Below, one piece after another: positions 499 through 64,000 of a stretch of 64,000 nt of DNA (its first letter is position 1; the number at the start of each line of letters is the position of its first letter). The stretch is taken from assembly GCA_026770705.1 (NCBI GenBank), contig JANJGN010000049.1:1116001-1180000 (forward strand). Reading direction: 5' to 3'. Under the pieces are notes generated by a model. The model did no database searches. It was given only the letters and a program-made list of their open reading frames with translations, and had not been told where the DNA came from. The position numbers and the translations under genes are program-made. The DNA comes from Isurus oxyrinchus. Lineage: Eukaryota.

Positions 499-568
499 CT
501 GAAACCCCGAGAGCTGCAAGGACAGGGTAGTGAATGGCAAACAGCAGGCCCTTTGGTGATCCATGCAT
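499..568 (-). CDS. Exon 1 of GPR139-like GPCR copy 0 (exon 2 would lie left of the window)
   Basis: Reverse strand reads MHGSPKGLLFAIHYPVLAALGVS+G over 70 nt, followed by a GTGAAG donor at 498. Same length, phase and sequence type as the four plus-strand first exons. Functional status cannot be judged here. Confidence 0.85.
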
Positions 569-1310: not shown

Positions 1311-1399
1311 GGAAAGTTGTTTCAGCAGAAGGTATAGCTGACGAGCAGTATCATTTACCTAATGGAAAACGCAGCCAAATTCACCTTCCTGGTCATTAT

Positions 1400-3010
1400 T
1401 CAGTCCGTGTGACCATGGATCAACACAATGTGGTTCCAAACTTCTCTGTGACTTTGCACACCCTGTAGCAGAACTGGTTCTGGACTCATTGTGGGCAGAT
1501 CCATTTAATTACCACTATTTTCGGCGTTCACTGACCAGTTCTGCATTAGCTCTTTGATTCCGGTCATTTCCTGGTCATTGCTGATGTATTCAATTTGCAC
1601 AGCCCCAGTTCCTGGTGATCACGCTCTTTTCAGTACATGTGAATTTGTTATGACGATAACTCTTTCAACATTGTTGCATTCAGGTCTTGATCACCCTCTT
1701 AAAGTTCATTGCAAGCTGGCTAAGGTCGGCATACATGGATTTGGTGTGCACAAGCTGAAATATTTGCGGATACATTCACTATGTAATGCTTCATCCCAGC
1801 AGATTTTCATGCATTAAGGAGCTGGTCTATTTCACCATGCTTAAAATCAGTATGGAGAGTTCCAATTAACATTCAATTAGGGCAAATAGATTTCAGAACA
1901 GGGAGTTTATAGTCACAGCAGAAAAGTCCAGCTCGGCACGGACAAATTTGGAGCAAGTTCAGCAAGGTAAAAGTCATTGTGGACTAATCCCGTTCAGCAA
2001 GGTGACTTTTCAGGTCGACTGGAATAGTCCAGTTAATTTATTTACAGTGTTAAAATAAATCATATTTGTTCAATACGATTTCACCTTGCCCTACCAAGAC
2101 TAGCATGCAGCGATTGCATTCAGTGCATGCAGTTTCAGTTTAACACGGTAACATTCAGCCTGCACAGATCGAGGTCCAAAAAACCATGGCTTAAGTCGAT
2201 AGGATCCTCTTCAATAATGTGATAAACTCTGCAAGCCACGAAAAGCCTGCAGTTTTGAGAAATGCCTAGCCAAAGTAAATTTAAGATAATTCTAGAAAAC
2301 TGGTTTTAACTGGATTTCCTGCTTTGGAATTCATTTGTAAGAAGTGATCGGCTAACCTGCTGTTCCACTGGAAATGAAGTAGTCCAGCCATTGTTGGTCC
2401 ACATTACCACGTCCTTTAGCTTTGTTTTTTACCATCATCCACTTTGTTATTAATCTCCCCTGCATTCCACTACATCACACAACTTCCACTTGTGATATTC
2501 CCTTCCCACTCCCACCCTTTGACTGCCTAAATAATGCACTTAAACCTGTTACGTTTCTCATTTATTGAATCTCTGATAAACAATAATGGAACTGAAACGT
2601 CAAATTAGTTTCTGTTCACAGAAGATACCTGGCCTCATTTATGTTTCCTGGATTTTGTTTCTCATATTATTGCATTTGGCATGGCAACATTCAGTGTAGA
2701 AATGACTAGATAGAGAAGGCTATATTCCAGCTGTTAGGCTCTAAACTCTAGCCTTCAGCGGGTTAGTCCAATTTAGTTCCATTCAGTGTGGACATGCCAT
2801 GCCTGCCTATAGTGAATGTGCAACGGTACGGTTGTACCGCTTTACGTTTAGTGGGCAATAATCTTTTCAGCATGGCTGTGTTTGGTACTGACTGCTTCAC
2901 ACTGACGTCCAGTGGAGACAGGCCCAACTGAGTATTTTTCAAATTGTTTTGCACCAGTCCAGGTTAGTTGGATAGGAACGTTCCATTCAGCATTTTACGT
3001 TCATAGAGTA
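1400..3010 (-). repeat. Highly degenerate 35-bp repeat field upstream of copy 0, interrupted by a Penelope end
   Basis: About 1978-2012 TGTGGACTAATCCCGTTCAGCAAGGTGACTTTTCAG matches the reverse complement of the 35-mer (TGTGGACTGGTTCAGTTCAGCATGGTGACATTCAG). Further hits near 2130-2165 and 2775-2795. Confidence 0.6.
2380..2670 (+). mobile_element. Penelope-like element 3' remnant
   Basis: Pyrimidine-rich tract, then CTGATAAA...CTGAAACGTCAA...CACAGAAGATACCTGGCC, homologous to the arms of the palindromes at 11590 and 36880. Confidence 0.5.
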
Positions 3011-3449
3011 CAGGTGAAAGCCCCCATTTGCCTCGTTGCACAAAAACTGGACTTCTGGAGAAAACAGGCCTTAACAGAAAAGGACCTGATGGATAATGCC
3101 CATCCTCTGAAGAGGGTTCAGAGGAGCAATCAGAGGACGAGTTGGAGGAGCCAGAACAACTGGCAGCAGATGCCGAGCGGCAAATTGACTGAGACACCTC
3201 AGCCTTAGAGTGTAGCAGACATCTGTAGAAAAAAATAAATCGTGTTATGGATCTTTGCTGTGTCAATGCAAATTACATGACCAAAAAGGAAGACCATTAT
3301 TCATACGTCAAATGAAATCCAAAGAAAATTGAGCGCCTCTGGGGTAACAAAGGCTTACAAGTTACTGCCTAACAGCCACTCAAGCCAGTATGCTTGCCTG
3401 AAACAAGTCACTTAACTTAGTTAAACATTTAGTCTTTGATAAAGAGAAT

Positions 3450-9370: not shown

Positions 9371-9619
9371 GTGCTGGGTCTTCATGGAGATCCGGAATTT
9401 AAAAAAAAACTGTAACATGATGGAAACACTCAGATGGTCTGAAAACATCTCTACTGAGAATTTCAAGTAAATTGCACTTTATTGCTGAAAAGCACAATCT
9501 CTCTGACGTGGGATCAACCATTCTGCCAATAACGGTGAGGAGTTAGGCCTGCCCACGCTCAAATTAAAGGCAGTGAATAGAGCATTTTCAACACAGAATG
9601 TCAGCGTGTGGATCTTGGG

Positions 9620-10080
9620 CTGTATCTGAGACGTAATGTAACCACACTGAACTGAAAGTGTAAACGCTGATTAGAATCATGTTCATCTGGACTTGTCAAC
9701 ACTGAATGTAACCGTGCTGAACTGGAGCAGTCCAAGCTCAATGCAGCCGAGCTGAACTGGAGCAGGACACCATGAATGCGACAGTCCTGAACTGGGCCAC
9801 GGCAGAAGAATATAAACGCGCTGAACTGGGCCGGGACACAATGAATATTACTACTCTGAACTGAAGTGGACTCGTCATTACTGAATGCAAATTTACTGAC
9901 TTGGAGCTGTCCAGGAGAAATATGCCAATGGCGAACTGGACAATTCTACACTGAATATAATTATCCTGAGCTGAAACTCGACCTTTCCGTTTTAAATATA
10001 ACCATACTGAATTAAACATAGTTATGCTAAAGCAGATGCACAATAACTGCTTTCCATATGTGCGGTGATCACACGGACTG
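9620..10080 (+). repeat. Degenerate 35-bp tandem repeat upstream of GPCR copy 1
   Basis: CTGAACTG recurs at about 9647, 9717, 9752, 9787, 9822 and 9856. The unit ACTGAATGTAACCGTGCTGAACTGGAGCAGTCCA matches the 55.6-59.3 kb array. Confidence 0.85.
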
Positions 10081-10329
10081 AAAAAATGATTTGGTTGGGG
10101 TTTTGACTGTGTTAATTTTTCGGACTGGAATATCTCTGATCAGTTCTCTTTTGTGCTGAGACCGCGTCATTCAGCACTAAGGAGCTTGAACCCGCTAATT
10201 CATAATGTCCAACGTTCACTTTAATCATTGCAACTGCTTTTAAAGCTTTTTATTACCGTTCATGGACAAATAAACATGACATCGTTAGAAAGCCTCAGCT
10301 ATTTCAGTATTAAACTGATCTCAAAAAAA

Positions 10330-10507
10330 TCATCCCATCAAAAGACAAGCATACACCTGGTAACAGCTGCAATTATATATTCTTTTCAATCAATATAATT
10401 AATTAAAAATAATAATGCATCTAATTATGTCCCTGGAGCCTGGCATTTAGCATAAATGTGACAGTTTTGCAGAATAGTAGAGAATGCGCTCGAAACTTCT
10501 GTCAGAA
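10330..10507 (+). promoter_or_regulatory. Proximal promoter of GPCR copy 1
   Basis: CAGCTG 10364-10369, TAATTAATTA about 10397, TAATTA 10422-10427 followed by TG-TCCCTGGAGCC, and CATAAAT at 10451. Conserved across paralogs. Confidence 0.75.
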
Positions 10508-10577
10508 ATGCACGGAGCACCAAAAGGTCTGGCTTTTGCCATTTTCTATCCTTTCCTGGCAGCTGTCGGGATTCCAG
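10508..10577 (+). CDS. GPR139/GPR142-like class A GPCR copy 1, exon 1 (N-terminus and first half of TM1)
   Basis: ATG at 10508, MHGAPKGLAFAIFYPFLAAVGIP+G, GTAAAG donor at 10578. The phase-1 junction joins in frame to 12830. Confidence 0.9.
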
Positions 10578-10649
10578 GTAAAGTATTGTTGGCAGTTACT
10601 ACCTTACCGTATCACTGAATAGCTATTTTAATGGTTCCATCCAGCAGTA

Positions 10650-12829: not shown

Positions 12830-13740
12830 CTAATTTGGTGGCCATTGCTATTCTCTCCCGAGGAAGGTGTGGTCTTTCCAGGTGCATCACTCGGTACCTG
12901 GTAGTCATGGCAATGGCGGATCTCCTGGTCATTATTACCGGCGTGATCTTAAACAGGATTGTTGGCATTTATTTCCCAGTGAGTTTCTTGTCCATCACGC
13001 CGTTATGCAGCCTTCGCTCCGTACTGAACTCTGCAACTTTTGGCACTTCTGCCTGGTTAACAGTCGCTTTTACCTTTGATCGATTTGTGGCCATTTGCTG
13101 CCAAAAGCTGAAAATAAAATATTGCACAGAGAAGACGGCGACGTACGTTATATGTGTAGTTTGTACAGTGAATTGTTTCAAATCTTCGTTCTTGTATTTT
13201 ATATATGAGCCCATGTACATAAGTAACAATATTCCCTGGTTCTGCAGCGTAGAAATTGCTTTTTATACATCACCTGCATGGGCTGCATATGACCTGATTC
13301 TTCACATTTTAATGCCTTGTCTCGCATTCATTCTAATCTTACTGCTCAATGCTCAGACCGTCAAACGCATTCTAAAGGCCAGTAGAGCCCGCAGGAGACT
13401 CCGGACCCAGAGAGATGGAGAGAATCAGAGTGACCCAGAAATGGAGAACCGGAGAAGGTCCATCGTCTTACTCTTCTGTATCTCGGGCAGCTTCATCCTG
13501 TTGTGGATTTGGTTTCTAATTAATTGTCTCTATGTCAGAATTGCGAGAGTCACGTATTTCTCTGGTTCAGATTTCAATGGGCTAAATTTTATTCTGGAGG
13601 AAACCGGAATAATGCTTCAGCTTTTGAGTTCCTGCATCAACCCGTTTATTTATGCAGGGACCCAGAGTAAGTTCAGGGAGGATTTAAAGAATGCGCTGAA
13701 ATTACCATGGATTCTCATTGTAAAATTTATTCAACAATAG
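12830..13740 (+). CDS. GPR139/GPR142-like class A GPCR copy 1, exon 2 (intact; spliced product 326 aa)
   Basis: Polypyrimidine tract and CAG acceptor at 12827-12829, then an open frame to TAG. Rhodopsin motifs: ANL (TM1), MAMADLL (TM2), FTFDRFVAIC (DRY-like), ECL2 PWFC, NPFIY (NPxxY) and helix-8 KFRE. Confidence 0.93.
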
Positions 13741-22145: not shown

Positions 22146-22189
22146 CGTTACTGCCTTAATGCCTTAGGATCGAAATTGGGTAGCTTTGA

Positions 22190-22400
22190 TATGCTGAATG
22201 TCCAACAATGTATGCTATTTGGAGTAACTCGCATTCGTAGTGAATGGAACCATGATGAACAGAATTTCCACACACACAGGATGTGACGCTGCTGCGCTTG
22301 GCGAGTTAATGCTGAATTCGCACATGCTGAACATGATGAATGGGCACCGAATGTAACTGTGCTGAACTGGAGACGGAATGTAATCAGGAAGAAATCGGCC
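22190..22400 (+). repeat. Degenerate 35-bp repeat upstream of GPCR copy 2
   Basis: GTGAATGGAACCATGATGAACAGA and CCGAATGTAACTGTGCTGAACTGGA match the 35-mer. Confidence 0.7.
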
Positions 22401-22519
22401 TGTCACTAGTGCAATTGGCTGATATGGCCAAAATGCATGCCTACCTATTTTTGTTTTAATGCGGACATTTACCTGTGATCACTTTGTACATTTCAATTTA
22501 GATCTGTGTCAGATTCCAT

Positions 22520-22701: not shown

Positions 22702-23179
22702 ATGCATGGATTACCAAAAGGCCTGCTCTTTGCCATTTACTGTCCCGCCATTGCAGCTATCGGGGTTCCAGGTAAAGCTAGTAAGTAGCTGCATGAATTA
22801 TTGGTGAGCTATATCAGTGCTCCCATTTTAGCAGTAGCGCATCTCCATGTAACCGATGTTGTTTTCCAATCTAATGGAATATATTTTCTGTTTTCTTTTC
22901 AATTAACTGCCTTAATTTCTCTTCCGCTATCATTCTTCCACTTTAATGGTATTATCTCTCCATTTGACACAATATTTTCTTCAATTTACCTGCATAATTC
23001 CGCAGTATTAATGCTATAATTCCTCCCCTTCAACAGTCTTACTTAATCCTTTTACCAGCGAAGTATATTTACATTACCTGCATATTTTCAACCCTTTAAC
23101 TGATTTTCTCGTGTTAAGCATCATTTTATCACATGAATTGAATAATTTGTCCCAGTTATCACGCCATTTCGAGATGAGT

Positions 23180-23600
23180 AAAATTGGATTGCTCTTTTGG
23201 ACGTTACTGTGTTTAAATTAATACAATATTATCATGATATGAAGGCAATTCTATTGCATGTTTGACAATGCTATTGTGGGGGGATTGCCATTAAGTTATT
23301 CTGGTGCAAAGAGTGTTCAATTGTGACATTGGTACTGTTCCTGTGGCTACATTTTCAAACCGTGATAACAGTGTAATTGGAGTTCTAATGTGCCATTGTC
23401 TGTGACAGAGAGAGGAGTATTACAGTATCATCCCTGTGAACACGTAGATCAACTGAGCTACAGACATTGTGTTTGTGAGTGAATTAAGTCGCCGTTTTCA
23501 CTGTGCGATTGCAACTCAGTTGTATTGTTGCCACTGTTACTGTGGGCGAATTATGATAGCGTGGTCACTGTGAGTGTAGATCTATTGACTTCGATAATGG
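23180..23600 (+). repeat. Degenerate roughly 66-bp tandem repeat in the copy 2 intron
   Basis: The ATTGTG..ATTG..ACTGTT.CTGTGG motif recurs at about 23187, 23252, 23319, 23386, 23450, 23518 and 23583. Confidence 0.6.
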
Positions 23601-23649
23601 GGGGATAATTCCCACATGTACTTCATTGATTGAGGTGTGAACACTTTCT

Positions 23650-23880
23650 GACTGGGTGGTCTTGTGGTGTAGCGGGTAGCGTCTCTGCCTGTGAAGCAGA
23701 TATTCTGGATTCAAGCCAGGGCCTGATGATCTCGGGAGGTGCGGACATAAATGGCTAAATAGGTTGAAAATTAAGCTGCAACTCCTTCCAACACATAGAT
23801 GACAGCCGCTAAGCCCAGTAGAGGCTCCTGGTCAGCCAGAAGATGTGGCAGTTGTGGCGCAAGAACCTCCTGACGTTAAA
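23650..23880 (+). mobile_element. tRNA-derived SINE
   Basis: TCTTGTGGTGTAGCGGGTAGCGTCTCTGCC...GGATTCAAGCC head; a related copy lies at 53730-53850. Confidence 0.55.
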
Positions 23881-26199
23881 AGGCTGCGCATTCACCTTCT
23901 TCCCACGGGATGTACTTCATCGCCATCGCCCTCATCGCTTCAACGGGCAATCACTCAACAAATTCCTGAATGATTTCATTGAAAGGAAGCTATTGGGCAG
24001 TGAAATGCTCAAAGATGTATAAGTAAAGTAAAGAATTGTCCATGGATGACTAATTGGCATATGTCTCTCACTCACAGAGCATGGTGTTTCTGCACTCAGT
24101 CTACCCCACTCACTTCTTCATCCGGCTCTCCTCTTCCTCATGCACTATTGCTGTTTGTTCTAAGTTGATGACTGCTGCAGTGGGATTCCCTTCTGTTCCT
24201 AGCACGCGGCAATGTCTCGGAATTTCTCAGCATTAATTGAGGACCCGTAAGTGGCTGTACCCTCTCGGAAAATATATAATATTTTTATTCCAAATATTCG
24301 TCCTTGGCTGCACATGGCTGTTATACGGACTGTGGAGTGCAGGACGGGGGAAGTGTTGCATCGTGGAAGATTATTTCTCTAAAGGAGACCACGTCAACTG
24401 CCAATGGTTCTATTAGTTGAGATCGACACCCAAAATTATCAGGTGATTATCAGGTGAAGAGTTCCAACATACTCTGCATCCTGCATAAAATGTCCACCGC
24501 ATAGTTGGAAGTGCTAATGTTCCAAACGCTTCATTCTGTTTGAGAGTATGTTTTACACTGTTCATTACAGACATTTTAAACAGTGAATAAGTTCACAGAA
24601 TTTCATTTGTAGGACCAACTTCTGATCCTCAGTGAGACATAATCCGTGTTCTTGTTAGATTTCACACTTGTTGGATGCTTTATTTGTCTACTTCAATAGT
24701 TTCTATAGCTCTTCGATGATGGGTTTTCATTTTTGTGTGTTCCATTATTCTGTGTTATAGACAAGTTTTGATTTCCTTTTCATTCTCTGTTAAGTTTCAT
24801 GAGAATATATTTTATTCGCAAACCATTGGCTCAATTTCTTTTGAAACAGAATCATTATTTCAAACCCAAAATAACCGCCCATAGAATGAAAGATAATTTC
24901 CAACTGAGTATCAAGTCTCGAAGCTATACGTTTCACACACAACTGTAAAAAGAATGATTTTGTTTGAAGACAAGCAAGGCATTTTCCTGTTCTCAACCTA
25001 ACTCACACACATTGTCTCTGTCTCTCTCTCTCTCCCTTTCTCTATTGCAGCTAATTTGGCAGTGATCATGATCCTGCCTCGAAGAAGATGCGGCCTCTCT
25101 GGATGTATCACTTATGACGTGGTGTCCGTGGTGATGGATCTCCTGGTCATAGTTACAGCTGTAATATTGAACCGAATTGCTGGGATTTATTTCCCATTCA
25201 GCTTCCTCTCTGTCACACCAATGTGCAGTCTCCTTTCTGCACTAACTTTTGAAGCTATAGACAGTTCTGCCTGCTTAACAGTTGCTTTCACCTTTGATCG
25301 ATTTGTGGTCATTTGTTGCAGGGAGCTGACACGAAAATATTGCACCGAGAGGATGGAAGCATGAGTAAAAGGAATCGTATCCGCACTGAGCTGTGTAAAA
25401 AATGCTTTCTTGTATTTTATATAACAACCGAGATACACAATTAAAAATATACCCTGGTTCTGCACTGTAAAAATAATATTTTACAAGTCGCCAGCATGCG
25501 CCACATATGACTGGATTTGTTTCATTGTAACCCTTTTTCTCCCATTCATTCTGATCTTATTCCTAATGCTCTGACTGCCATGTACATTCTAGCGGCCAAT
25601 AGTGCCCGCAGGAGACTCTGTATCCAGAGTATTGGACAGAATCAGAGTGACCCAGAGATGGAGAAGCGGACAAAGTCCATACTTTTACTTTTTGCCATCT
25701 CGGGAAGTTTCATTCTTTTATATTTGCTCTTTTTTGCAACTATCCTCTATGTCCGAATTGCGAAAGTAATCTATTTCTCAGGATTCACTTCTACTCAAGG
25801 AACATTTACTCTTGAGGAAAAAAAGATTTATGCTTTAGTTATTGTCCTCCGGTATCAACCCGTTTATTTATTCAGGGACCCAGAGTAAATTCAGGGCCGA
25901 GTTAAAGAATGGGCTGAAATACCCACTGAACATTTTGATTAAATTATTTAAAATTGGATAGTAGGTAAATTCTGCTGAACTGTACGTTATTTCCCAATAC
26001 TTCATCTCCTACTCTGTGCCACGTAAGACCACGCATCCAAGATCCTCTCGGTTTCAAATCCATTCCCAATGTGTCAATATAAAAATGAATAAGGAAAACA
26101 GCATCACTGCAGGATTAAGTGAGAAAAATCATCACAATTAGTTTCCTGTTCTCTTACCGGTACTTACTCAGGCCTGGTGCATCCCAGCAGCCTCGATGG

Positions 26200-39200: not shown

Positions 39201-39689
39201 TAGAGTTCTATGGCCAACGTGGTGGGAGACACAGGTGGGAATAGAATGGAAATCTGCATTGAAAAGGAGACGTTTAATGCCAGAAAACTGGAGACCATCA
39301 ATTTGGCGGTGGTGGTCTGGCGTGTGGGGAGGGGGGGTGGGGAGCGGAGGGTGGTTGGAAGTGGGGGTGTGGGTGGGGGCGGAGGGGGGGAGGCGGTGGC
39401 AGGAGGAGATTCACGACTTGAGGTGTGAATGAATGCATGCGTCTCCTTTCAGAATGCAGTGGTTGTTGAAAAACGCAGTTCAAATCAGAACACGCTGGAA
39501 TCGCTCAGCTGTTCTAAAAGTACCTACAGATAATACCAGATTTGTTGAGAATTTCAGCATTTTATCCTTGCTTTATGAATTTCTGACCAGATAAAAACTC
39601 TAGACTTGGACTTGCGCATTACTGCAGTAATTATGTTCAGCTGGATGCGTTCACTTTGAAAGGCATCTTGTTGAATAACACCTTGTCAA

Positions 39690-40510
39690 CTCAGAATACC
39701 CATGTGCAGCAAAGGACCTGTGTACCATGAGTGTAAACGCTTCCTGGTGGGCTTGTCAACACTGCATATATCCATGCTGAACTGAAATGAATCAATCCAC
39801 ACAGGCTGTCACTATGTTGAACTAAACTGCGCTTGTCATAACTGAATGTAAATTGATGAAACTGGCCCTGTCTGCCAAGATGTAACAACGCTAAACTTTC
39901 CAGCCCTTAAAGATTTTAACATTTTTGAACTGGTTCTGTCCACACTGAAATGAACTGTGATGAACTAGATCTCGCCATTCTCAATATAAGTACCCGAACT
40001 TGACCTGGATCAGGCTGTGTAGAATACAATAGTCGAGAAATGCACCTGACCACACTCAGTTTGACCATGAATATGCCTTGGCTGTGTTGAGGCTTGCTTG
40101 TATTAATCTGATCATATTCAATGCTAATCTGAAATTGTACTCACGGAATGTAACTACTCTGAAATAGGTACTTTTGCACTGATCTTACAGATGGTGACGC
40201 CGAAGTAGAAACCATATGTGCCTTTGCTAAACTGGACATGCACGCACTGACTTGGAAACATGTGGCCGCAGCTTCACTGTCGCTGAGCCAAATCTTGTAA
40301 CTTATTTCCCAACAGCACTGTGTATGCACTGACACCATATGGACTGCATCGGTGCAAGAATGCGGATTATCAACATCTTCTCAAAGTCAATTAGGGATGG
40401 CAATAAACGCTGATTTAGACATGAACGATTTAAAAAGCAGAAATAACTGTAAATGTGTTTTATCGGAGCTTCTCACGAATAACTGGTCTAGTCTGCACTG
40501 AACCAAATTA
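39690..40510 (+). repeat. Degenerate 35-bp repeat upstream of GPCR copy 3
   Basis: CCATGCTGAACTGAAATGAATCAATCCACACAGGCTGTCACTATGTTGAACTAAA and GAACTGGTTCTGTCCACACTGAAATG. A LINE tail is inserted at about 40320-40435. Confidence 0.75.
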
Positions 40511-40834
40511 TGAAAAATGTAGCCTTACCTTCCCTGAAGGCAACACGACTTAACTGTAGCTGTTACAATGAAGAGAATAACGACAGTTCTGTTAAAGTGT
40601 TTCAAGTCTCAGAGAGACTTGCAACCCAGTTGAAGTTGAATATTGAGCGTTGAGGCTGATGAGAAATTGGCTGCGATTTTCTGCATTTTTTAGGTGGTCA
40701 CTTGTGAAAACATTGCTTTAAGCTGAACCCAATGTCCAGGCACTCATCGTGTTTAATTTTTAAAAAAAACATTGTAATTCGGTTGCTTCTGTGGTCCCCT
40801 GGGCATTTTACTACAGAGTCGCCCTTGTACTAAT

Positions 40835-41043: not shown

Positions 41044-44000
41044 ATGCATGCAGGACCAAAAGGTCTGGTGTTTACCATTTATTGTCTCTTCCTTGCAGTT
41101 ACCAGCGTTCCAAGTGAGACATTGAGGTTACTTAGCAGTTGTGTTAAGTTATTGTTTAGCTGCATAAATTCTCATAATTATCCGTAGCGCTTCTTTATGT
41201 CACATACATGCCTTCTCCCGTTTCATGGAGTATAATGTTCCTGTCCAGGACTATAATGTGCTTTGTTACAGGGCACAATTTACCCTCTTTTACAGCATGA
41301 CTCATTCACGTTAACAGCATTAATTCACCACTTTAAAATTATGATAACTGAATTAATGACATAATTTCACGGTTTATTGTTATAATTTCTCCACTTTTAA
41401 CATTACCATTTCACTGATTTACCAGCGTAATGTCTTCATATTATCTATATTGCGGACAGCCTTTAGCTTCCATTGTCTTGTTATGAAAGGTAGAATTTTA
41501 TCTCTTCTATTATATTATTTCTTCCATCTATGTCCAACATCTGACGATGAAGATAATTTTTGATTGTGTTATTGACCCTGTTACTGTTGTTAAAAAAATA
41601 GCGCTATCACGGTGTAAAGGGAATTCCATTGTGCTATTGTCAGTACAATTTTGGCTGAATTAACACAAAGTTGTTGTGGTGTAAATTTTGTTCTATTGTG
41701 GCATCGACCCCTTCTCTGATGGTGATCTCTCACACAATGCGGATGAAATTTGATTCTGTTATTGGCTCTGTCACTTGGAGTGAATTCTCACATTGTTAAA
41801 ACTAAGCAGTTTTGTTTTGTCTGGTTGACTCTGACAGCAACGGAAAAATTCCGACCCATGAATCATTTCTTGAAATATTTAAACCATCGAAGGATCTCCA
41901 CTGAATTTAATGGATTGATATAATGAAGGAACTTTATTAGCCACTGAAATGTTGAGACGTATAACAATGCTGTAGATGTCCTTTGCCAGTGAGCTCAGTG
42001 CTTCTGTTCTAAGCCTCTAACACCCCCTGCTTCAGCCAGGCACTCCTCTCCGAAATTCTCTGCTGCTGATAGTTCTAGATTCCTTATTGCTGAGCAGGGG
42101 ATTTTCTTTTGTGCCGAACATCCGACGTTGTCTCTGACTGTTCACATCATCGTGATTTTCTCCACATTAATTGAAGCCCCAGAAGTGGCCTCATCCCTCA
42201 CATGAGCCACATAACACCCTTCTTTTAAATATCGACAACACGATAAATGTCATAATTTATCCCAATACCACAGTGTAACGCCCAGTAAATGGCACACTTA
42301 GGAGCATCTTTAGCCAAATGTCACCTCCTCATTGCCAGTTCCACTGATTCGGATCGACGCAGAAGACCTGAGTTTATGATGAGGCAAAGATCTCAGGTTT
42401 GCCACTGCCTCCAATCCAAAGTGTCCACTGCAAATTCGGAGATATGTGACTGTTTAGTGGCATCATTTTGTTGTGGATGCTTTTGAGCAAGTTGCCGGCC
42501 GGATTTTCCAACACGAAGCACATTTTTATTGCCTTATTCTTTCAGGTTCTGTGGGCCTTGCTGACTGGACAGCATTTATTTCCCATCCCTAATTGCCCTA
42601 GAGAAGTTGGGGTGAATCGTCTTATTGAACCACTGCAGCTCATGTAGTTATAGGTACTCCCACAGCACTACTAGGAAGGGATTTACAGGATTCTGCCCCA
42701 AAGAGATTGAGGGAATTGAGATATAGCTACAGGTCAGTTTAGTGTGTTGCTTGGAGGGGAACTTACAGGTGGTGCTCCAGTGTGTCAACTTCCCTTTTCC
42801 ACCGAGCTAGTAGAGGTCCCAGGATTGGAATATTCTGTTGAACATTGCAACTTGTATACAGTACACACTTCTGTTCCTGCGTTTAACGGTGGTGGCAAGA
42901 GTGAATGTTGAAGGTGGAGGATGGGGTGACAATTAAGTAGGCTGTGTATTTTTCCTGTATGATGTCAACTTTCTTGAGTGTTGTTGGAGCCAAAGTCATC
43001 CAGTCAAACTGGAAACATCCATTCAGCCGCCTGAACTGGGCATTTGATGGTGGACATACTTTGTGGAGACATGTGGGTGAGTTATTCACACCTGTCCTGT
43101 TCTTCATCTAAAATATTTAAATTGCTGGTTCAGTTCGGTCCCTGGTCAATTTCTCATCCAGGATGCTCACAAAACATTGAAAGTAGCCTCTGTGGAATAA
43201 TTGGAGGTATAAACCGTCTTCTTGATATTTTCTGCACTTACACTTGCTCGTTGTGTTATTTAACGGCATCAATGCTTATTATATATAGATTTGCAGATTG
43301 AAACAATTATTATGTACTCGATGTTCTGGTGTCATCTCTAATAAGTTTTAAACATTTTGTTGTCCTCTATTGGCCTGATTCTCATATTTTGCATTATAAT
43401 GCCATTGACTTGCCCTAGTTCCTTGATCTGGATGAGTACTTTTTATTCCAGTAAACAGTTGTTCCCCTCCAACTGAGGGTCGCACTACAAAGTTTTAAAG
43501 TTCACTCAGGATTATTTGAAACATATGAATATGTTACCCGTCGTTCTGCTCTCTCTCTCTCTTTCTCTCTGTCTCTCTGTATTGCAGCAAACTCGGCAGT
43601 GATTGTGATCCTCTGTCGAAGAAGGTGCAGCCACTCCAAATGTATCAATTATTACCTGGTGTCCATGGCAGTGACAGAAATCTTGGTCATGGTGACCGCG
43701 GTAATATTAAACAGAATTGTTGGAAATTATTTCCCATCTAGTTTCCTGTCTATCACACCAATTTGCAGTTTTCGTGCTGCCTTAAATACGGCAGCAATTG
43801 ACTGTTCTGCTTGGTTAACAGTTGCTTTCACCTTTGATTGTTTTGTCGCCATTTCTTGCCAGAAGCTAAAAATAAGATATTGCACCAAATAGATGACAAC
43901 ACGGGTTATTGTAATCGTTTTGGTACTGAATTGCATAAAAAATATCTTCATATATTTTGAATTTGAACCGAGGTGTATTATTGACAATATACCCTGGTTC

Positions 44001-44485
44001 TGTATCATTATACTTTGCTGGCATGGATATCATTTGACTGGCTTCGTTCCATATTAACCCCTTTTCTCCCAATCATTCTGATTTTACTGCTCAATGCTCT
44101 AAGCGTAAAACACATTCGAGCAGCCAATCGAGCCCGCAGGAATCTCCAGACCTAGCGCAATGGAGAGAATCAGAGTGATCCAGAGGTGGAGAAGCGGAGA
44201 AAGTCCATTGTTTTAATCTTTGGCATCTCGGGAACTTTTATCCTCTCATATTTGATATTTCTTGTAAACATTATTTATGTCCGAAGAGCCAATGTTACCT
44301 ATACCTCAGATTCTGATTTCAGTAATGTCGCATTCATTCTCCAGCAATTTGGATATATTCTTCAGCTATTGAGTTCCTGCATCAACCTATTTATTTATGC
44401 TGGGACCCAGAGTAAAATCAGAGCCGAGTTAAAGAATGGGGTGAAATATCCACTGAACCAAATTATTAAAACATTTAACATTTGA
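41044..44485 (+). pseudogene. GPR139-like GPCR copy 3, pseudogene (exon 1 41044-41113, exon 2 43588-44485)
   Basis: Exon 1 MHAGPKGLVFTIYCLFLAVTSVP with GT donor. DRF is changed to DCF; stops at 43890 and 44153; deletion near 44010. Confidence 0.92.
42535..43150 (-). mobile_element. CR1/L2-group LINE 3' end in the copy 3 intron
   Basis: Inverted tail CAGCATTTATTTCCCATCCCTAATTGCCCT and the peptide WMTLAPTTLKKVDIIQEK-LIVTPSSTFNIHSCHHR. Confidence 0.75.
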
Positions 44486-44569
44486 AAATTCATCATGAAC
44501 TGTACTTTGTATTGCAGCAGGGCATCCTGCTGACCATATCACTCACAGGCTCGCTTCCAAAGTTGCCTT

Positions 44570-54162: not shown

Positions 54163-55554
54163 TCTTTTGCAGTTATTAATCATAATGCGAGGGATACAGA
54201 GGAAAGTGCCCCCCTGAACCTGACAAGGGATTGGGATTGTGCGTTGAGTGTTTTGGTTGGTTTTGTGAGGGCAGGGGAAACCCAGCGTATTTTCTGGAGG
54301 GTTAAGGGATGGTGGAAAATAGAACAGGCAGTCTATTTGGCTCTCAAAACCATGACAGTGTGGATATCCTCAGCTGAGGGAAATGAATTCCCTATTTGAG
54401 CATTGGTATGAAAGGTGAATACTCAGAGGAGTTGTTTTGCAGATTCAGAAAAACCGGAGAATGCAATGCACAATTTATAGGAAGCTGTGTGCGAGGAAAT
54501 GATGCTGTTGGAGTCAGTGCGCTGATGGTGAATTTGGATAGCCTATCTCCAGGAATTGAAAAGCATATTCAAGGAAATGAACGGAAGAAACTGAGGGGGA
54601 CAATATGAAGGTGTGGGAATGTTGGAAATTTGAAATAAGGTTAACTGCTATCCCGAACAGTGTTTGAGAGCAGGAGATTGAACTCAGAAATGTGCCGGAG
54701 AAGGAGATGAGGGTGGGGGCCTGAGGAAGAATAAAACAAGCAAAATTTTATGCATTGTGGAGTAAAGCAACCGATATAGTTAGGATCCATTCCTGTATCT
54801 ATAGCAATATCTTGTTTTCACAGAGGTGACTGGAGTGAAAGGAGAAGTGTTTTTATTGAGTGCGACAGCAGATTCAAGTAGGGAAGGGCTGTGTTCTCGT
54901 GATGGATCGAAATTAGTTGGAAGTTATCTCAAGAAATGAACAAATATCTGTCAGTCTACCCTGGTAGGGGATGGGGGAAAAAGAAATGGTTATGGACAGG
55001 AAACTGGGAACTTTCAATGTGGCGGTGGCATTAGGCATGTCACAGGTTGGGGTGGAAAGAGACTGAATGGGGCGTTTCCAAAATGCATGGAGGCACGCTG
55101 ACCAGACACGGTCCACACATAGTGGGACAGTAAAGAATAAGGCCTTTGCAAAAGTAATATATTCGTGTTCATACAACCAAAAGCCCAATTACTGAAGACC
55201 TGTTGAAAAGGTCCCGTGCACACTAAACATAAAAGGTGTGTAAAGAGGGCATTGTGTACCTGAATTTAAAATACAACATTTCGGAAACATACCGCGTGTC
55301 TGACAGCGTCTGTGGCAAAAGAAACTGAATCGTTCTGAGATTCTACAGCATTTTATGTAACAATTTCTGACCAAATATAACTTTGGGAGTTGCACAGCTA
55401 CATTAAGTCAGTAACCGTACTGAACTGAAATGTCCAATCTGAAGGCAATCCTGCTGAATAGGATTTTGTCGATTTACAGTTGTGCTGTATAGAACTGAAC
55501 TTGTGTAAGCAGAAAGAAAATGCCTTGTGTAACGCAGATGAACAAAGATGTGTC

Positions 55555-58500
55555 TCCATGATGAACTGAAACAGTCCACACTGAATGTCCCAAAGCTGAA
55601 CTGAACCAGTCCACACTGAATATCCCCATGCCGAACTGAACCAGTCCACACTGATTGTTATCATGCTGAACTGAAACAGACCACACTGAATGTCACCGTG
55701 CTGAACTGAACCAGTCGACACTGAATGTTACCATGCTGAACTGAACCAGCCCTCACTGAATGTTACCATGCTGAACTGAACCAGACCACACTGAATATCA
55801 CTATGCTGAACTGAACCGGACCACACTGAATGTCACTGTGCTGAACTGAACCAGTCCACACAGAATGTTACCATGCTGAACTGAACCAGTCCACACTGAA
55901 TGTCAACATGCTGAAATGAAACAATCCATACTGAATGTTGCCATGTTGAACGGAAAAAATTCCACACTGAAAGCCTCCATGCTGAACTGAACCAGCCCAC
56001 ACTGAATGTCACCATGTTGAATTGAACCAGCCCACACTGACTGTCACCGTGCTGAACTGAACCAGTCCACACTGAATATCACCATGCTGAACTGAACCAG
56101 TCCACACTGAATGTTACCATGCTGAACTGAACCAGTCCACACTGAATGTAACCAGGCTGAGCTGTAACAATCCGCACTGAATGTCACTTTGTTGAATGGA
56201 ACCAGTCCACACTGAATGTAAACATGCTGAAATTAACTAGTCCACACTGAATGTCACTAGGATGAGCTGTACCAGTCCAGACTGAATGTCACCACGCTGA
56301 ACTGTACCAGTCCTCACTGAAATTCGCCATGCTGAATTCAACTAGTCAATACTGAATGTCATCATGCTGAACTGAACCGGTACACACTGAATGTCACTAT
56401 GCTGAACTGTAACAGTCCACACTGAATATTACCATGCTGAACAGAACTAGTCCACCCTGAATGTCACTTTGCTGAATTGAACCAGTCCACACTGAATGTC
56501 ACCATGCTGAACTAAACCAGTCCACACTGAATGTCAACTTGCTGAACTGAAGCAGTCCACGCTGAATGTCACCATTCTGAAATGAAACAGTGCACGCTGA
56601 AAGTCACCATGCTGAACTGAACCAGTCCACACTGGATGTCACCATGCTGAACTGAACCAGCCCACAATGAATATCACCATGCTGAACTGAACCAGTCCAC
56701 ACTGAATATCACAATAATGAACTGTAGCAGTCCACACTGAATGTCACCATTCTGACCTGAAACAGTCCACACTCAATGTCACCATGCCGAACTGAACCAG
56801 TCCACAATGAATGTCACCATGCTGAATTGAACCAGTCCACACTGAATGTCACCATGCTGATCTGAAACAGTCCACACTGAATGTCGCCATGTTGAACTGA
56901 ACCAGTCCACACTGAATATCACCATGCTGATCTGTACCCATCCACATTGAATGTCACCATGCTGATCTGTACCAGTCCAGACTGAATGTCACCATGCTGA
57001 ACTGAACCTGCCCACACTGAAGGACACCATGCTGAACCAAAATAGCCCACAATGAATGTCACCATGCTGACTTGAACCGGTCCACACTGAATGCCTCTAT
57101 GCTGAACTGAATCAATCCACACTGAATGTTAACAGGCTGAATTGAACCAATCCACAATGAATGTCATCATACTGAACTGAACCAGTCCGCATTGAATATC
57201 ACCATACTGAACTGTAGCAGTCCACACTGAATGTCACCATGTTGAATTGAACCAGTCCACCCTGAATGTCATCATTCTGAACCGAACCAGTCCACAATGA
57301 ATGTCAGCATGCTGTACTGAACTAATCCACATTGAATGTCACAATGCTGAACTGAAGCAGTCCATACTGCATGTTAAAATGCTGAACTGAACCAGTCCAC
57401 ACTGAATGTCACCATGCCGAACTGAACCAGTCCACACTGAATGTCACCATGCTGAACTGAACCATTACACACTGAATGTCATCGTGCTGAACTGAAACAG
57501 TCCACCCTGAATGTCACCATGCTGAACTGAACCAGTACACACTGAATGTCACCATGCTGAACTGTACCAGTCCACACTGAATGTCACCATGCTGAACTGA
57601 ACCTGCCCACACTGAAGGACACCATGCTGAACCAAAACAGCCCACAATGAATGTCACCATGCTGACCTGAACCAGTCCACACTGAATGCCTCTATGCTGA
57701 ACTGAATCAATCCACACTGAATGTTAACAGGCTGAATTGAATCAATCCACAATGAATGTCATCATACTGAACTGAACCAGTCCGCATTGAATATCACCAT
57801 AATGAACTGTAGCTGTCCACACTGAATGTCACCATTCTGACCTGAAACAGTCCACACTCAATGTCACCATGCCGAACTGAAACAGTCCGCAATGAATGTC
57901 ACCATGCTGAATTTAACCAGTCCACACTGAATGTCACCATGCTGAACTGAAACAGTCCACACTGAATGTCGCCATGCTGAACTGAACCAGTCCACACTGA
58001 ATATCACCATGCTGATCTGTACCCGTCCACATTGAATGTCACCATGCTGAACTGTACCAGTCCAGACTGAATGTCACCATGTTGAACTGAACCAGCCCAC
58101 ACTGAAGGGCACCATGCTGAACCAAAACAGCCCACAATGAATGTCACCATGCTGACCTGAACCAGTCCACACTGAATGCCTCTATGCTAAACTGAATCAA
58201 TCCACACTGAAAGTTAACAGGCTGAATTCAACCAATCCACAATGAATGTCATCATACTGAACTGAACCAGTTCGCATTGAATATCACCATACTGAACTGT
58301 AGCAGTCCACACTGAATGTCACCATGTTGAATTGAACCAGTCCACCCTGAATGTCATCATTCTGAACCGAACCAGTCCACAATGAATGTCAGCATGCTGT
58401 ACTGAACTAATCCACATTGAATGTCACAATGCTGAACTGAAGCAGTCCATACTGCATGTTAAAATGCTGAACTGAACCAGTCCACACTGAATGTCACCAT

Positions 58501-59275
58501 GCCGAACTGAACCAGTCCACACTGAATGTCACCATGCTGAACTGAACCATTACACACTGAATGTCATCGTGCTGAACTGAAACAGTCCACCCTGAATGTC
58601 ACCATGCTGAACTGAACCAGTACACACTGAATGTCACCATGCTGAACTGAAGCAGTCCACACTGAATGTCACCAAACTGAACTGAACCAGTACACACTGA
58701 ATATCACCATGCTGATCTGTACCCGTCCACATTGAATGTCGCCATGCTGAACTGTACCAGTCCACACTGAATGTCACCATGCTGATCTGAGCGAGCCCAC
58801 ACTGAAGGACACCATGCTGAACCAAAACAGCCCACAATGAATGTCACCATGCTGACCTGAACCAGTCCACACTGAATGCCTCCATGTTGAACTGAATCAA
58901 TCCACACTGAATGTTAACAGGCTGAATTGAACCAATCCACGATGAATGTCACCATACTGAGGTGAACCAGTCCGCATTGAATGTCACCATGCTGAACTGA
59001 ACCAGTCCACACTGAATGTCACCATTTTGAACTGAAGCAGTCCACACTGAATGTCACCATTCTGAACCGAATCAGTCCACAATGAATGGCAACATGCTGA
59101 ACTGAACTAATCCACACTGAATGTCACAATGCTGAACTGAAACAGTCCACACTGCATGTTAAAATGCTGAACTGAACCAGTCCACAATGAATGTCTCTAT
59201 GTTGAAATGAACCAACCCACACTGAACGTCTCTGTGTTGAACTGACCCAATCCATACTGAATGACACCATTTTGA
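55555..59275 (+). repeat. 35-bp tandem minisatellite, about 106 units, consensus ACTGAATGTCACCATGCTGAACTGAACCAGTCCAC
   Basis: Unit starts at 56071, 57016, 57611, 58101, 58801 and 59221 are exact multiples of 35 apart. Degenerate flanks extend to about 55410 and 59950. Confidence 0.97.
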
Positions 59276-60054
59276 AAGTAACTTCACTTTTCCAAGCTCG
59301 AAATATCCTGACCTGGCCCTGTCCATTATAAATATAAAAAACTGTCATGCTCGAGACTGCGCCAACTTTAAGTTGAGGAACTGGTCTTGCCGACTCTGAA
59401 ATTAATTTTTATAAACTGGATCTCTCTTCGCTGGATATCATCGCGCTGAGCTGCACCTAAAGCAGGATCTATTAAACATAAGATTAGTGAACACACTGAA
59501 CTCATCCATGCTGAATACGACCTTACCCAGAAATCGATGAATAAATCTGATCCACACTGGCTGGGAGCTCATTACTCTGACCCTGTACACACAAAATGTA
59601 ATTAACCCGAACGAGAGCAGTAATACACTGACATTACGGACATTGTCCAGGACATGTCGATATCAAATGTACCTTTGGAAAATTAGGCATGTCCACCCTT
59701 AACCTTACTGTTCCATATTGGAAATGCTCTGGTGAACTGATCCTGTCCACAATAAACATAATGGAAAAGACCTGAGCAATCCACGCTTAATGCAAGCGTG
59801 AGGAATTGGGCCAATGGACAGCGAAGGCAACCGAATGTAACTGGGTGTATCCTCAATTAATACGCATTCAGTTGTGTGAAAGCGTGTGAATAGTCTCAAA
59901 GGCAGTTGACACCAGGTTGCATCTGATTCGTGACAACACGGGCTGAGCAATAGTCAGGTGTGAGAACTTCTCTACGTTTCCTTAGTAACATTTGCCATTA
60001 TCAGCGTGGTCAGTATAGTCACTGGTTCACTTTAGATTAGTTTCCAGCCTCATT

Positions 60055-60244: not shown

Positions 60245-63200
60245 ATGCACGGAGCACCGACTGGTCTGGTGTTAGCCATTTACTAACCCGTCCTTGCAGC
60301 TATCGGGGTTCCAGGTAAAGTATTGTAGTTATTTTGTAACTTCAATTGTCAATGGTAGGCAGCATTAATTAACCCATATTGCCTGTCGCACATCCCCACG
60401 ATATGTTTTGTCCCATTTAATGAGATATACTTCCCCCTTCATCCGTGCACTTTTTTCCTTTAAATGGTATATATATATTTTTTTTAAGCCTGAACTACGT
60501 TTCCTTTGCTATTCTAACCATATCAGTTCGCCATTTTAAGGTTCCTTTTTGCCTAATTTAAGAATGCATTTTCTTCAATCTATTGATTTATTTTCTATTA
60601 ATGTGATAGTTTCTCCACTATCCCTTTTATTCCCCATCTTACCTTTATAATTCCCTCCCTGTAATGGTGCACTATCCCCCAATCGCTTTAATTATATATT
60701 TATATAATTTATATTATTTACTGTTAGCCATCTCACGATGTAAACATACTTCAATTGTGCTATCGGCACAATTGCTGTGGATTAATTATTTGCACCGTAT
60801 TGTTAAACATTAAAAGCAATTCCATTGTTGGCGCTGATACACAGGGAAAATAAGAGCGAGTGCAACGAAAGTTTACCTGACTGATTCCTGGCATGGCAGT
60901 GCTGACATATGAGGAGAGATTGAGTCGGTTAGGATTATATTTGTTAGGGCGCAGAAGAATGAGGGGGGGATATCATAGAAACCTAGAAAATTCTAACAGG
61001 AATAGACAGGGTAGATGCAGGGAGGATGGTCCCGATGGTGGGGGAGTCCAGAACCAGGGATCACAGTCTGAGGATATGGAGCAGACCACTTGGGGCTGAG
61101 ATGAGGAGAAATTTCTGCACATAGAGGGAAGTGAGCCTCTGGAATTCGCTACCACAGAAAGTAGTTGGGTCCAAAACATTGTACGTTTTTGAGAAGAATT
61201 TTGATATTCGCCCTCTTGGGGCTAAAGGGGTGAAAAGGTACGGGGAGAAAGCTTGAACAGGTTATTGAGTTGGATGATCAGCCATGATCATAATGAATGG
61301 CGGAGCAGGCTCGAGGGGCCGAATGGCCTACTCCTGCTCCTATTTTCCATGTTTCTATGTTTATATAATCATACCATTATCATGGAGTTCCTATGGGTGA
61401 TTAATCAAAATGTTGTTACAATGTGAATGAAATTTGATTTTCTAACTGGCTCTATAGAATAGCACGTTGTTATCAGGGTGTAATTGTACTTCCACTGTGT
61501 TGCCACAAGGTTCTTGTGAGTTTTATGACAGTGTAAAAATAGTTCAGTTGTGTTCTTGACCGTGTTCCCGTTGTTTATTGAAAAAAGAAATGTTAAAGTG
61601 CAAATGCATTTCTATTGATTTTTTGCCATTGCCATTAAAGGAATAATTCCCAATAATGGTTGAATGATCGATAATCGATTGAATATTTCCCAGCTGAACT
61701 TAGTAGCTCAAGTTACTAAGGAACATGATTAGGCACCGATTTTTGACAGATATTTTAGCAGTGTAAAAGTAACGTTTCGATGAATGATTGGTATTTGCCT
61801 CAAACTCAACGTTCTGTTTCTCAGTCTCAAACAAATTGAGCAAGTTGACTGCGGACATTTCCAAGACTCAGTATTTTTTTACAGTCATTCGTTGACTGGG
61901 GTCACTTTTGATGCTCAACCTGACATAATGTGTTTTCTGGCTAGTTTCCTCAGGTATTGTTCAATAGTTTTTTTTTTCAGCTGCATCGCTATTCTGGATA
62001 GAATTTGTCGATGTAGCAGATATTTTATTTTACTTTCTATCTATTTGCTGCTCCCATGTTTTTGGATGCCTTTGTGCTCTCTGCTGCATGTCATTATATT
62101 ATTCTTATGTCATTGACCTACCTTAGTTTCGGGATTATTATTTCAACCATGGAAACAATTGTCCCTAGCTTTTGGGATACTTTTGAACACATAATCACAT
62201 CTTAAATGTATTATTTTCACCAGAATCCTTTAAAGCATTATTTTTGAGGGATTGGCGGTTTGTTGGGGTGTGGTGGGGAAAAGAGTTGTGGGGCTGCAGG
62301 TGGAGGAAATTCAGAAAGTTTCTTGATCTTGATCTTGATCTCTCCCAGATGCATTTTCTCTCTATCTCTCTTGCTTACACAAGCTATCTTACAATATCTT
62401 TATCTGTATTACAGCTAACTTGGAAGTGATTGTGATCTTGTCTCGAAGAAGGTGTGGTCTCTCTAGATGTATCATTTGTTACCTGGTATTCATGGCGGTG
62501 ACGGATCTCCTAGTCATGATCACTGCTCTGATATTAAGCTGGATTGCTGGTATTTATTTCCCATACAGTTCCTTGTCCATCACGCCTGCTGCAGTCTCCG
62601 AACTTCCTTAATCTATGCAGCCATTGACAGTTCCGCCTGGTTAACGGTTGTTTTCACTTTTGACCGATTTGTGGCAATTTGTTGCCAGAAGCTGAAAATA
62701 AGATACTGTACCGAGAGGACAGCAGCAGTGGTTATAGGAATAGTGTCCACACTGAGCTGCGTAAAAAGCACGTTCATGTATTTTGCAAACGAACCTATGT
62801 ACTTAATTAACAATATACCTTGGTTCTGCAGGTTAAAGTCAGTATACTATACGTCACCTGCATGGGCTGCATATGACTGGGTTCGTTCCATTGTAACCCC
62901 GTGTCTTCCATTCATTCTGATTTTACTGCTCAATGCTCTAACCATTCGACATATTGTCTTGGCCAATAGAGACTCCGCAGGAGACTCCGGGCCCAGAGCA
63001 ATGAAGTCGACCAGAGTGACCTGGAGATGGAAAAGCGGAAGAAGTCCATGGTTTTACTCTTTGCCATCTCGGGCAGCTTCATCCTGTCATGTTTCTTATT
63101 TTTTATAATGGTGTTTTATGTCCGAATTGCCAATGTCCCTTACTTCTCAGGTTTGGATTTCAATGATTCTGCATTTGTTCTAGAGGAAAGTGGCTATCTG

Positions 63201-63311
63201 CTTCAGATCATGAGTTCCTGCATCAACCCATTTATTTATGCTGGGACTCAGAGAAAATTCAGGGCTGAGATAAAGAATGTGCTCAGCCTAATGTTTAAAT
63301 TATCTAAATAA
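60245..63311 (+). pseudogene. GPR139-like GPCR copy 4, pseudogene (exon 1 60245-60314, exon 2 62415-63311)
   Basis: Exon 1 MHGAPTGLVLAIY*PVLAAIGVP has TAA at 60284. Exon 2 retains DRFVAICC and NPFIY but has frameshifts near 62590 and 62970. Confidence 0.92.
60860..61362 (+). mobile_element. CR1 LINE 3' end in the copy 4 intron
   Basis: LTYEERLSRLGLY-LGRRRMRG and the tail GGGCCGAATGGCCTACTCCTGCTCCTATTTTCCATGTTTCTATG. Confidence 0.9.
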
Positions 63312-64000
63312 TTTTTACAACATCAGTGAAATATAACATGAATTATGTGCTAAATTCCATCAGTTCACATTATTGACCATATCACATAGATCCGCCCTTC
63401 CAAGGTGCATTCGTTTTTAGCTCATTACCCTGTATGGTGAAATTAAGAATGTATAAGGAACCCTGCATCACCAGGCAATTATGTTTTGTAAACTGTTCTA
63501 AGTTAGTTTCCCACCTTCTCGTCTACAATGACTCTGAACCTTTCATTTTCTATATGGATCAAGGGCGTTGGATATCAGGATAGCTTGAATCAGCTGGTCA
63601 TGAGCCATGATGGCAAGATTACACTTGGTTATTGTTCTTTCATGGGATGAGTGCATCGCTGGTAAAGCCAGCACTTGTTTCCCATCCTTAATTTACATCA
63701 TCAAGGCACTTCCTCGATGGGCTCCTCCATTGTATACACGTGAGTGCACAATACAGTTTGAAGCTGTGCCAGGTGTTGTCATTTCCTCTGGTGTTCCATC
63801 TCCTGTTGGCTTGCAATAGATGTGCCACATCAGCCTAAAGGTGGCCAATACAGGGCTCTCATATTTCCAACGGAATGGTCTCAACTTACTGTCTCTGTAG
63901 GCAGTCTGGTGCACCTGTGCTATGCTTGCAGGTTTGCAACCGTGCTGCATGAGTCTGCCTGTGTTGATGGACAATATGGGGGGGATGATGTGCCATATAA

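Follow-up and report, generated by a model that had tools for sequence, protein, structure and literature searches.

A decaying 35-bp minisatellite inherited with the promoters of a shark receptor-gene cluster

Each of five receptor genes in a 64-kb stretch of Isurus oxyrinchus DNA (contig JANJGN010000049.1, 64,000 nucleotides, hereafter the window) is preceded by a field of tandem 35-bp repeats, which lies a few hundred base pairs 5' of the start codon, points in the direction of the gene and was inherited along with it. One field has a young, uniform centre between decayed edges; in the others the units are decayed. The reading favoured here, with a probability of about 0.55, is an ancient promoter-linked minisatellite whose centre is live and whose edges are fossil, and which was carried along as a passenger of the genes that it precedes.

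The window holds a cartilaginous-fish cluster of five two-exon class A GPCR genes, labelled A (minus strand) and B, C, D and E (plus strand) in window order, with start codons at 568 (minus), 10508, 22702, 41044 and 60245. Gene B is intact and gene A is cut by the window edge; C, D and E, three of the four complete copies, are pseudogenes.

499..568, minus strand: exon 1 of gene A, which is inverted and has its exon 2 beyond the window edge
10508..10577, plus strand: exon 1 of gene B, 70 bp, with a GT donor
12830..13740, plus strand: exon 2 of gene B, open up to the stop codon, matching Pfam 7tm_1
22702..25965, plus strand: gene C, a pseudogene; exon 2 with stops and frameshifts
41044..44490, plus strand: gene D, a pseudogene; exon 2 with stops, frameshifts and a 13-bp deletion
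60245..63330, plus strand: gene E, a pseudogene; exon 1 with a stop, exon 2 with two frameshifts

Branch dN/dS values were 0.24 for B, 0.32 for E and 0.43–0.50 for C and D. As the value for E lies below those of C and D, gene E probably broke recently, the branch estimates being noisy. Exon 2 of gene B was matched by 2210 of 3141 candidate database proteins. Among the best 120 of these 2210 matches, all 119 named proteins came from sharks (54–75% identity), and most of these 119 carried the label "probable G-protein coupled receptor 139." This label is loose, because a 16-member profile matched GPR139 (E 8e-12) and the TRH receptor (E 5e-12), the nearest solved structures, only remotely; judged by their sequences, the "GPR139-like" receptors are a separate, shark-expanded class A family. 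Pfam gave 7tm_1 as the sole match of the receptors and no assignment to OR, TAAR, V1R or V2R. An exon-2 bin reached a summed depth of 13,269 in sequencing run X4 against 53.5 for single-copy DNA, which is consistent with a family of hundreds, depth not being a copy number. Contigs about 85% identical over the end of the gene B intron and exon 2 (12385–13543) were found in organisms A and B, so a closer paralogue of gene B, as judged from these contigs, exists outside the window. A search of metagenome contigs with the receptor alignment gave 101 pattern matches, of which 0 were confirmed, and a literature search with most subscription journals outside its scope found no paper on the 35-bp repeat or the receptor family.

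Several other elements were observed in the window. A MITE-like inverted repeat with a length of about 175 bp and 83% self-complementarity lies at 36883–37098; it is related to a very high-copy intronic element at 11594–11825. In the region between genes C and D, a stretch of about 1.1 kb was duplicated in direct orientation long ago, the two copies (32704–33820 and 35543–36633) now being 63% identical. A borderline tRNA-like Rfam match at 8011–8068 (29.8 bits, E 0.036) adjoins an interspersed repeat and is probably a SINE head, and compound ATC and TCT triplet repeats at 29959–30273 give rise to a spurious 155-codon frame on the minus strand.

The fields were located by flat cyclic alignment to the 35-bp unit in 912 windows of 210 bp, with the maximum of the same windows reversed as the threshold. 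Exactly six runs were obtained, at 9451–10080, 22121–22470, 39551–40320 and 54951–59920 on the plus strand and at 1401–2170 and 2661–3010 on the minus strand. An nhmmer search with a three-unit profile returned the same places, with the best match at 9635–9734 (E 1e-15) and further matches at 22241 (1e-5), 39755 (3e-10) and 2032–1956 (1e-10); the reversed window, used as a control, gave one match with an E value of 4.9. As the preliminary description had stated, the fields end 0.3–0.8 kb 5' of all five start codons (about 830 bp for A, 430 for B, 290 for C, 440 for D and 300 for E), and they always follow gene orientation, all six runs lying on the gene strand and those of the minus-strand copy being inverted. 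Its statement that the repeat was not seen elsewhere in the window was borne out as well, both searches finding runs only upstream of the five ATGs; outside the fields, there were isolated weak single-unit matches only, and 30 Markov shuffles gave the same rate, about 8 matches per window at an identity of 20/35. Because the five genes are paralogous, the five fields represent one origin and not five independent co-locations. Genes A (568, minus) and B (10508, plus) are arranged head to head, and their fields face each other across about 6.4 kb.

1394..2170, minus strand: proximal field of the inverted gene A, decayed units
2640..3020, minus strand: distal field of gene A, decayed units
9451..10087, plus strand: field of gene B, about 14 decayed units, the best-kept short field
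22170..22410, plus strand: field of gene C, about 7–8 decayed units, truncated
39551..40600, plus strand: field of gene D, some 30 decayed units, with orthology to E in 5' flank and tail
55075..55544, plus strand: decayed 5' edge of the gene E field, from nhmmer, unit distance and flank homology
55545..59290, plus strand: young array, centre of the gene E field, 106 units at about 89% to the consensus with one 1-bp indel
59291..59950, plus strand: decayed 3' tail of the gene E field, orthologous unit for unit to the A and D tails

The fields differ greatly in size, with one young array of 106 units as against roughly 8–30 decayed units elsewhere, and those of the paralogues range from about 8 to over 120 units. 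Between the 5' flank and the tail, about 5 units are found in D compared with 106 in E. The field of gene A is split by about 400–500 bp without units (about 2170–2660), and that of gene B ends in a terminal block common to A, B, D and E. An assembly artefact can be ruled out for field B, since a single contig of run X4 (organism A), which may be the source sample, spans 9310–11617 with 6 differing letters and 4 gaps; orthologous contigs with field B were also present in organism B, a related species. Rfam gave no match on the 35-bp fields, and a 22-letter pattern of the unit matched neither metagenome contigs (0 matches) nor viral contigs (0). A coding function of the long array was rejected, the longest stop-free stretch being 36 codons on the plus strand and 81 on the minus strand, as was a special DNA hairpin, for which the folding energy was no better than that of shuffles in two of two stretches. 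Spacer enhancers of the Xenopus rDNA type derive from a duplicated promoter; this origin was likewise rejected, no unit match being found over any of the five proximal promoters.

That the field belongs to the duplicated cassette, as had been proposed, is supported by the alignment of the tails unit for unit, the homology of the 5' flanks of the B, D and E fields and the colinearity of the intergenic DNA. When ungapped motif discovery was confined to the fields of A, B, C and D, it returned a unit identical to the array consensus at 32 of 35 positions (differing at positions 10, 25 and 29), with 22.7 bits of information compared with 10.0–10.3 in five shuffles. Because this discovery was blind to the long array, it argues for one origin of all fields. 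Unit positions 13–14 read CA (12), CG (7), TA (6) or TG (1) among 37 well-matching decayed units and look like an old CpG. When fields were aligned in register, the D and E tails agreed at 197 of 299 letters and the A and E tails at 137 of 205, each better than 300 permutations of unit order (p 0.003); B–C (p 0.01) and B–D (p 0.03) also aligned, and 6 of the 10 field pairs were not significant. Colinearity in a unit matrix was significant in 2 of 15 pairs (A–E and D–E) and not for A–D, where the best path ran one unit off. The C–D and D–E intergenic regions gave 10 of 13 matches in one colinear plus-strand chain, mostly at 57–67% identity. C and D are the closest pair by intron (0.62 vs 0.46–0.54 for others) and by differing 4-fold sites (0.29 vs 0.41–0.45), and beyond its field, gene A showed no homology to the other cassettes. 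Taken together, tail, flank and intergenic homology imply that the duplicated unit comprised a gene, its downstream DNA and the next field, and that the edges had already decayed when they were copied.

The depth of this decay was measured as distance from the ancestral unit, calibrated by simulation, with seven control regions all at background. Values were 0.5–0.6 for the tails, about 0.33 for the core of field B and about 0.18 for the young array. Set against a neutral distance per lineage since the paralogue split of 0.3–0.35 (4-fold sites) or 0.35–0.5 (dS), the tails are older than the duplications and field B is near neutral. The preliminary description had also stated that the 35-bp period persists despite heavy divergence. 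This was confirmed for B (z 14.8), the proximal field of A (6.6) and the tail of E (4.6) and weakly for C (3.8), whereas no period was detectable in D (2.1) or the distal field of A (0.7). Where the period persists, no function is needed to explain it, because intron, intergenic DNA and a second repeat have been kept at the same depth; intron and intergenic DNA of the paralogues are still alignable at about 58–62%. The second repeat is unrelated to the 35-mer, runs in gene orientation and has been kept in five of five genes.

10600–11150, 22800–23350, 41130–41700 and 60340–60950, plus strand, and 120–480, minus strand: decayed repeat of about 22 bp in the first 0.5 kb of intron 1

This repeat was seen in intron 1 as a lag-21/22 signal (z 2.6–5.3) and as a motif of 12.3 bits, compared with 7.8–8.3 in four shuffles, with 16 of 34 site spacings at 21–23 or 44. 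Each promoter and exon 1 is thus bracketed by two old minisatellites, the 35-bp repeat upstream and the 22-bp repeat in the intron.

Turnover was evident in the young array of gene E, which has a period of 35 over 106.3 copies at 55551–59270, in exact 35-bp steps. Seven duplicated blocks at lags of 14–51 units carried common derived variants, as produced by in-register block turnover; recent block duplications in 55545–59290 were of 14, 17, 20 and 31 units. By unit structure and block turnover, the 35-bp repeat is a minisatellite, with copy-number variation seen between paralogues. From this anatomy we infer that the minisatellite would have arisen once, a few hundred bases 5' of an ancestral receptor promoter, and that all later duplicates would have inherited a field because the duplicated unit was large (gene, downstream intergenic DNA and next field). 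In the centre, in-register unequal exchange or slippage would expand or collapse the array, giving 106 units in E and about 5 at the matching place in D; at the edges, turnover would have stopped before the duplications, leaving the units to decay one for one ever since. Array centres are described as being homogenized more efficiently than ends in a study of satellites (PMC5615363). Position and orientation would then be fixed by descent, linkage to the promoter would help retention, and no function would be needed.

The 190 bp 5' of each ATG could be aligned across all five copies, at 57–68% pairwise. In these promoter blocks, TAATTA abuts TCCCTGG about 85 bp 5' of the ATG, among motifs that we take to be an E-box, an AT-rich homeodomain site, an O/E(Ebf)-like site and a TATA box. 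In the promoter of gene A, only the O/E-like half has been kept, at 646 (minus).

10320..10507, plus strand: putative proximal promoter of gene B, placed by its motifs; homologous blocks lie 5' of the other four ATGs
10422, 22621, 40959 and 60159, plus strand: homeodomain plus Ebf composite, the sole four occurrences in the 64 kb, none of them in a field

A mouse OMP Ebf probe has CTCCCTGG in common with the promoter (PMC5608512, supplementary file 7), and the Sfaktiria composite of the same source has the spacing found in the promoters if the O/E site is read as TCCC-NN-GAGC, or a spacing one base longer if that site is read as the perfect palindrome. The composite hints at olfactory-type expression of the receptor family but represents one ancestral motif occurrence; expression tables for catshark tissues, contained in the supplement of PMC11979771, may bear on its place of expression. 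The suggested relevance to receptor choice would draw on these promoter motifs only. The homeodomain plus Ebf site predicts expression of the "GPR139-like" family in olfactory neurons. Sharks have an apparently small odorant-receptor repertoire, and olfactory expression, if true, would bear on it.

Two marginal signals hint at constraint on the fields. The first concerns the two TGA(A) cores of the unit, positions 3–6 (TGAA) and 18–20 (TGA), which are 4-fold under-mutated in the long array, with 12 variant events as against about 50 expected from same-base positions (10 old vs 38.7 expected; 2 recent vs 10.8 expected). Neutral simulations matched this depletion by a two-window statistic in 0 of 480 runs without site-rate variation; with such variation, 0 of 120 matched at an SD of 0.3 and 5 of 120 at an SD of 0.5. 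A third TGA in the same 5-mer context was not depleted. Generic low mutability of TGA/TCA was rejected as the whole cause, since these contexts elsewhere in the window (introns, interspersed repeats) were reduced only 0.86-fold (58 vs 67). The variant spectrum is strand-skewed: the first 31 units hold C>T 28 and C>A 20 as against G>A 8 and G>T 3. This excess of C over G changes suggests that a local mutational bias is partly responsible; transitions in the young array are about equal to transversions. The two cores had been picked on the whole array. In a blind split, in which low sites were chosen from units 1–31 and tested on the remaining 73, 30 events were found vs 37 expected (permutation p 0.36), with 7 of the 10 chosen sites staying low and 3 not, and the base-adjusted rank correlation of site variability in the array gave p 0.11. 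Cores were in nominal excess in the decayed field of A (102 vs 88 expected, P 0.05), in slight excess in B (77 vs 70, P 0.18) and in none in D; 6 of 7 decayed fields had no significant excess. Nuclear-receptor half-site, TEAD, MAF and Pax motifs were rejected for the cores, their required positions being variable in the array.

The other signal comes from the comparison with organism B, which was made among the matches listed (32 of 6164 pieces and 40 of 388 difference rows), leaving out records about 10–17% different (taken as paralogues), one interspersed-repeat record, the records of organism A and overlapping second haplotypes. Among these matches, field B differed from its orthologue at 21 of 549 bp (3.8%; run X7, record 25) and the intron of gene B at about 78 of 1572 bp (5.0%; six non-overlapping records), with no significant difference between whole field and intron (p 0.36) and no significant heterogeneity over 10 non-coding stretches (p 0.15). 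Over the 302 bp with the best units of field B, 5 sites differed (1.7%; run X5, record 9; uncorrected p 0.01), compared with 5 of 229 in exon 2 (2.2%). None of the 7 differences listed within field B fell on core positions, where about 1.4 were expected; this count is uninformative. Promoter, exon 1 and intron start differed between organisms A and B at 31 of 463 positions and were not slower than the intron. In addition, the array consensus has moved from the ancestral unit at 3–4 of 35 sites, where about 8–10 were expected, a borderline deficit; this slow drift could be explained by homology-dependent turnover without function.

A cis-regulatory role of the field, activating or silencing, is possible on these signals but doubtful. 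In its activating form, which is unlikely, the field would be an upstream element tunable by copy number, in which a protein binds the two TGA(A) cores of each unit (15/20-bp spacing) and the multimer acts with the homeodomain plus Ebf site, setting the frequency or strength of receptor expression. The core depletion, the low divergence (5/302) over the best units of B, the core excess in A and B (copies not known to be broken) as opposed to D, and the fixed place beside a promoter with an olfactory-receptor-like composite would all fit; promoter VNTRs are described as changing factor-site density in a review (PMC12776774), and tandem homeodomain sites as raising expression of an OR transgene in PMC7804114. 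Against it stand the blind split and the rank correlation, the lack of significant core excess in most decayed fields and a whole field no slower than the intron. Moreover, the latest variants still show the depletion (2 vs 11) even though gene E has by now become a pseudogene, selection on each of 106 redundant units would be hard to sustain, and no DNA-binding factor could be assigned to the cores. Singular receptor choice needs a default-off state, and the field could alternatively seed silencing, through a repeat-binding repressor (e.g. a zinc-finger protein) or methylation of the array that places the promoter in default-off heterochromatin. Core depletion would fit here too, as would the trace of an old methylated CpG at positions 13–14, the low CpG o/e of the array (0.19 vs 0.49 in the window) and heterochromatic silencing of OR promoters, as reported in PMC5608512. 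CpG decay, however, is the default in vertebrate repeats, the consensus holds no CpG to methylate, and field B is not CpG-poor (0.68), which makes a silencing seed quite improbable.

It had also been suggested that the field is a recombination substrate driving duplication, the oriented fields serving as matching partners in unequal crossing-over or conversion, by which receptor genes are duplicated and reshuffled. The layout recalls the 70-bp repeats of trypanosome VSG genes (PMC4858185), the homology of the inverted copy A ends near the 5' end of its field, and gene D is a mosaic, with field and flank matching E and with intron and exon 2 closest to C, which argues for a crossover between the 5' edge of the D field and the gene body. 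The fields are only 45–48% alike from unit to unit, however, and so poorer substrates than exon 2 (70–75%), and their 5' edge is no boundary, because D and E remain homologous upstream of their fields. Informative sites favoured D+E as far as about −140, a point in the promoter and downstream of the field, and C+D beyond it (6:1 before and 4:9 after, to exon 1; not significant), and no breakpoint could be tied to a field, that of C being mostly lost and too short to compare. With homology crossing the D/E 5' edge and only a weak switch in the promoter, the suggestion found no positive support and is very unlikely to be right. Independent arrival near the receptor genes, as a dispersed satellite or on a transposon, is the least probable reading: a few extra contigs on the best units of B (depth 117 vs 53.5 in one bin of run X4) would fit, but the rest of the 64 kb holds no field, the tails are orthologous unit for unit, and field bins in X4 had depths of 53.5–117 as against 13,269 for the exon-2 bin and 203,869 for an intronic interspersed repeat. 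These depths are not copy numbers, and they count only matches at least 84% identical to field B, E-type arrays elsewhere being invisible to them.

Inheritance as a passenger is favoured over these readings because the field diverges about as much as the intron, the 22-bp repeat has been kept equally well and the longest array precedes a pseudogene, gene E; the core depletion (12 vs about 50), the 1.7% over the best B units and the slow consensus drift count against it. As a passenger, the field would offer a clean, datable minisatellite life cycle, its edges predating the duplications of the genes, and could serve to mark promoters and to trace how a large receptor family was duplicated. Should core constraint hold across the family, the field would instead be a repeat-based cis element for which hundreds of paralogues give replicates. 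The widest reading, an unrecognised chemosensory family of hundreds of genes in cartilaginous fishes with OR-type promoters and two bracketing minisatellites, in which the copy number of the TGA(A)-bearing 35-mer sets or gates receptor choice, is improbable; if true, it would be a gene-by-gene, repeat-based counterpart of the mammalian enhancer hub.

Among known systems, mouse OR promoters and Greek Islands share with the window the homeodomain plus O/E(Ebf) likeness, which lies in the proximal promoters and not in the fields (PMC5608512 and PMC7804114). Greek Islands, by contrast, lie between genes, number one or a few in each cluster and are not built of tandem repeats, and the 35-mer lacks the composite; a field acting as a Greek Island was therefore rejected, the Lhx2 plus Ebf composite occurring in 0 fields and at four places in the 64 kb, all proximal promoters. 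GPR139 is a class A GPCR like the shark receptors, with remote similarity (E 5e-12 to 8e-12 for TRH receptor and GPR139). The VSG 70-bp repeats of Trypanosoma brucei are likewise oriented, upstream of each member, long once and short elsewhere (PMC4858185); in contrast, each shark gene has its own promoter, there is no sign of expression-site switching, and no breakpoint was tied to the fields. MAOA-type promoter VNTRs (PMC12776774) are also head-to-tail units of tens of bases near a promoter with widely variable copy number. The 35-bp repeat differs in being common to all paralogues of the cluster and mostly fossil, older than the duplications, and its likeness to promoter VNTRs is one of position, any shared function being putative. 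Like satellites with homogenized centres (PMC5615363), the E field has a young uniform core with decayed units on both sides; unlike them, it is small, of euchromatic scale and gene-linked, and its edges can be dated against gene duplications.
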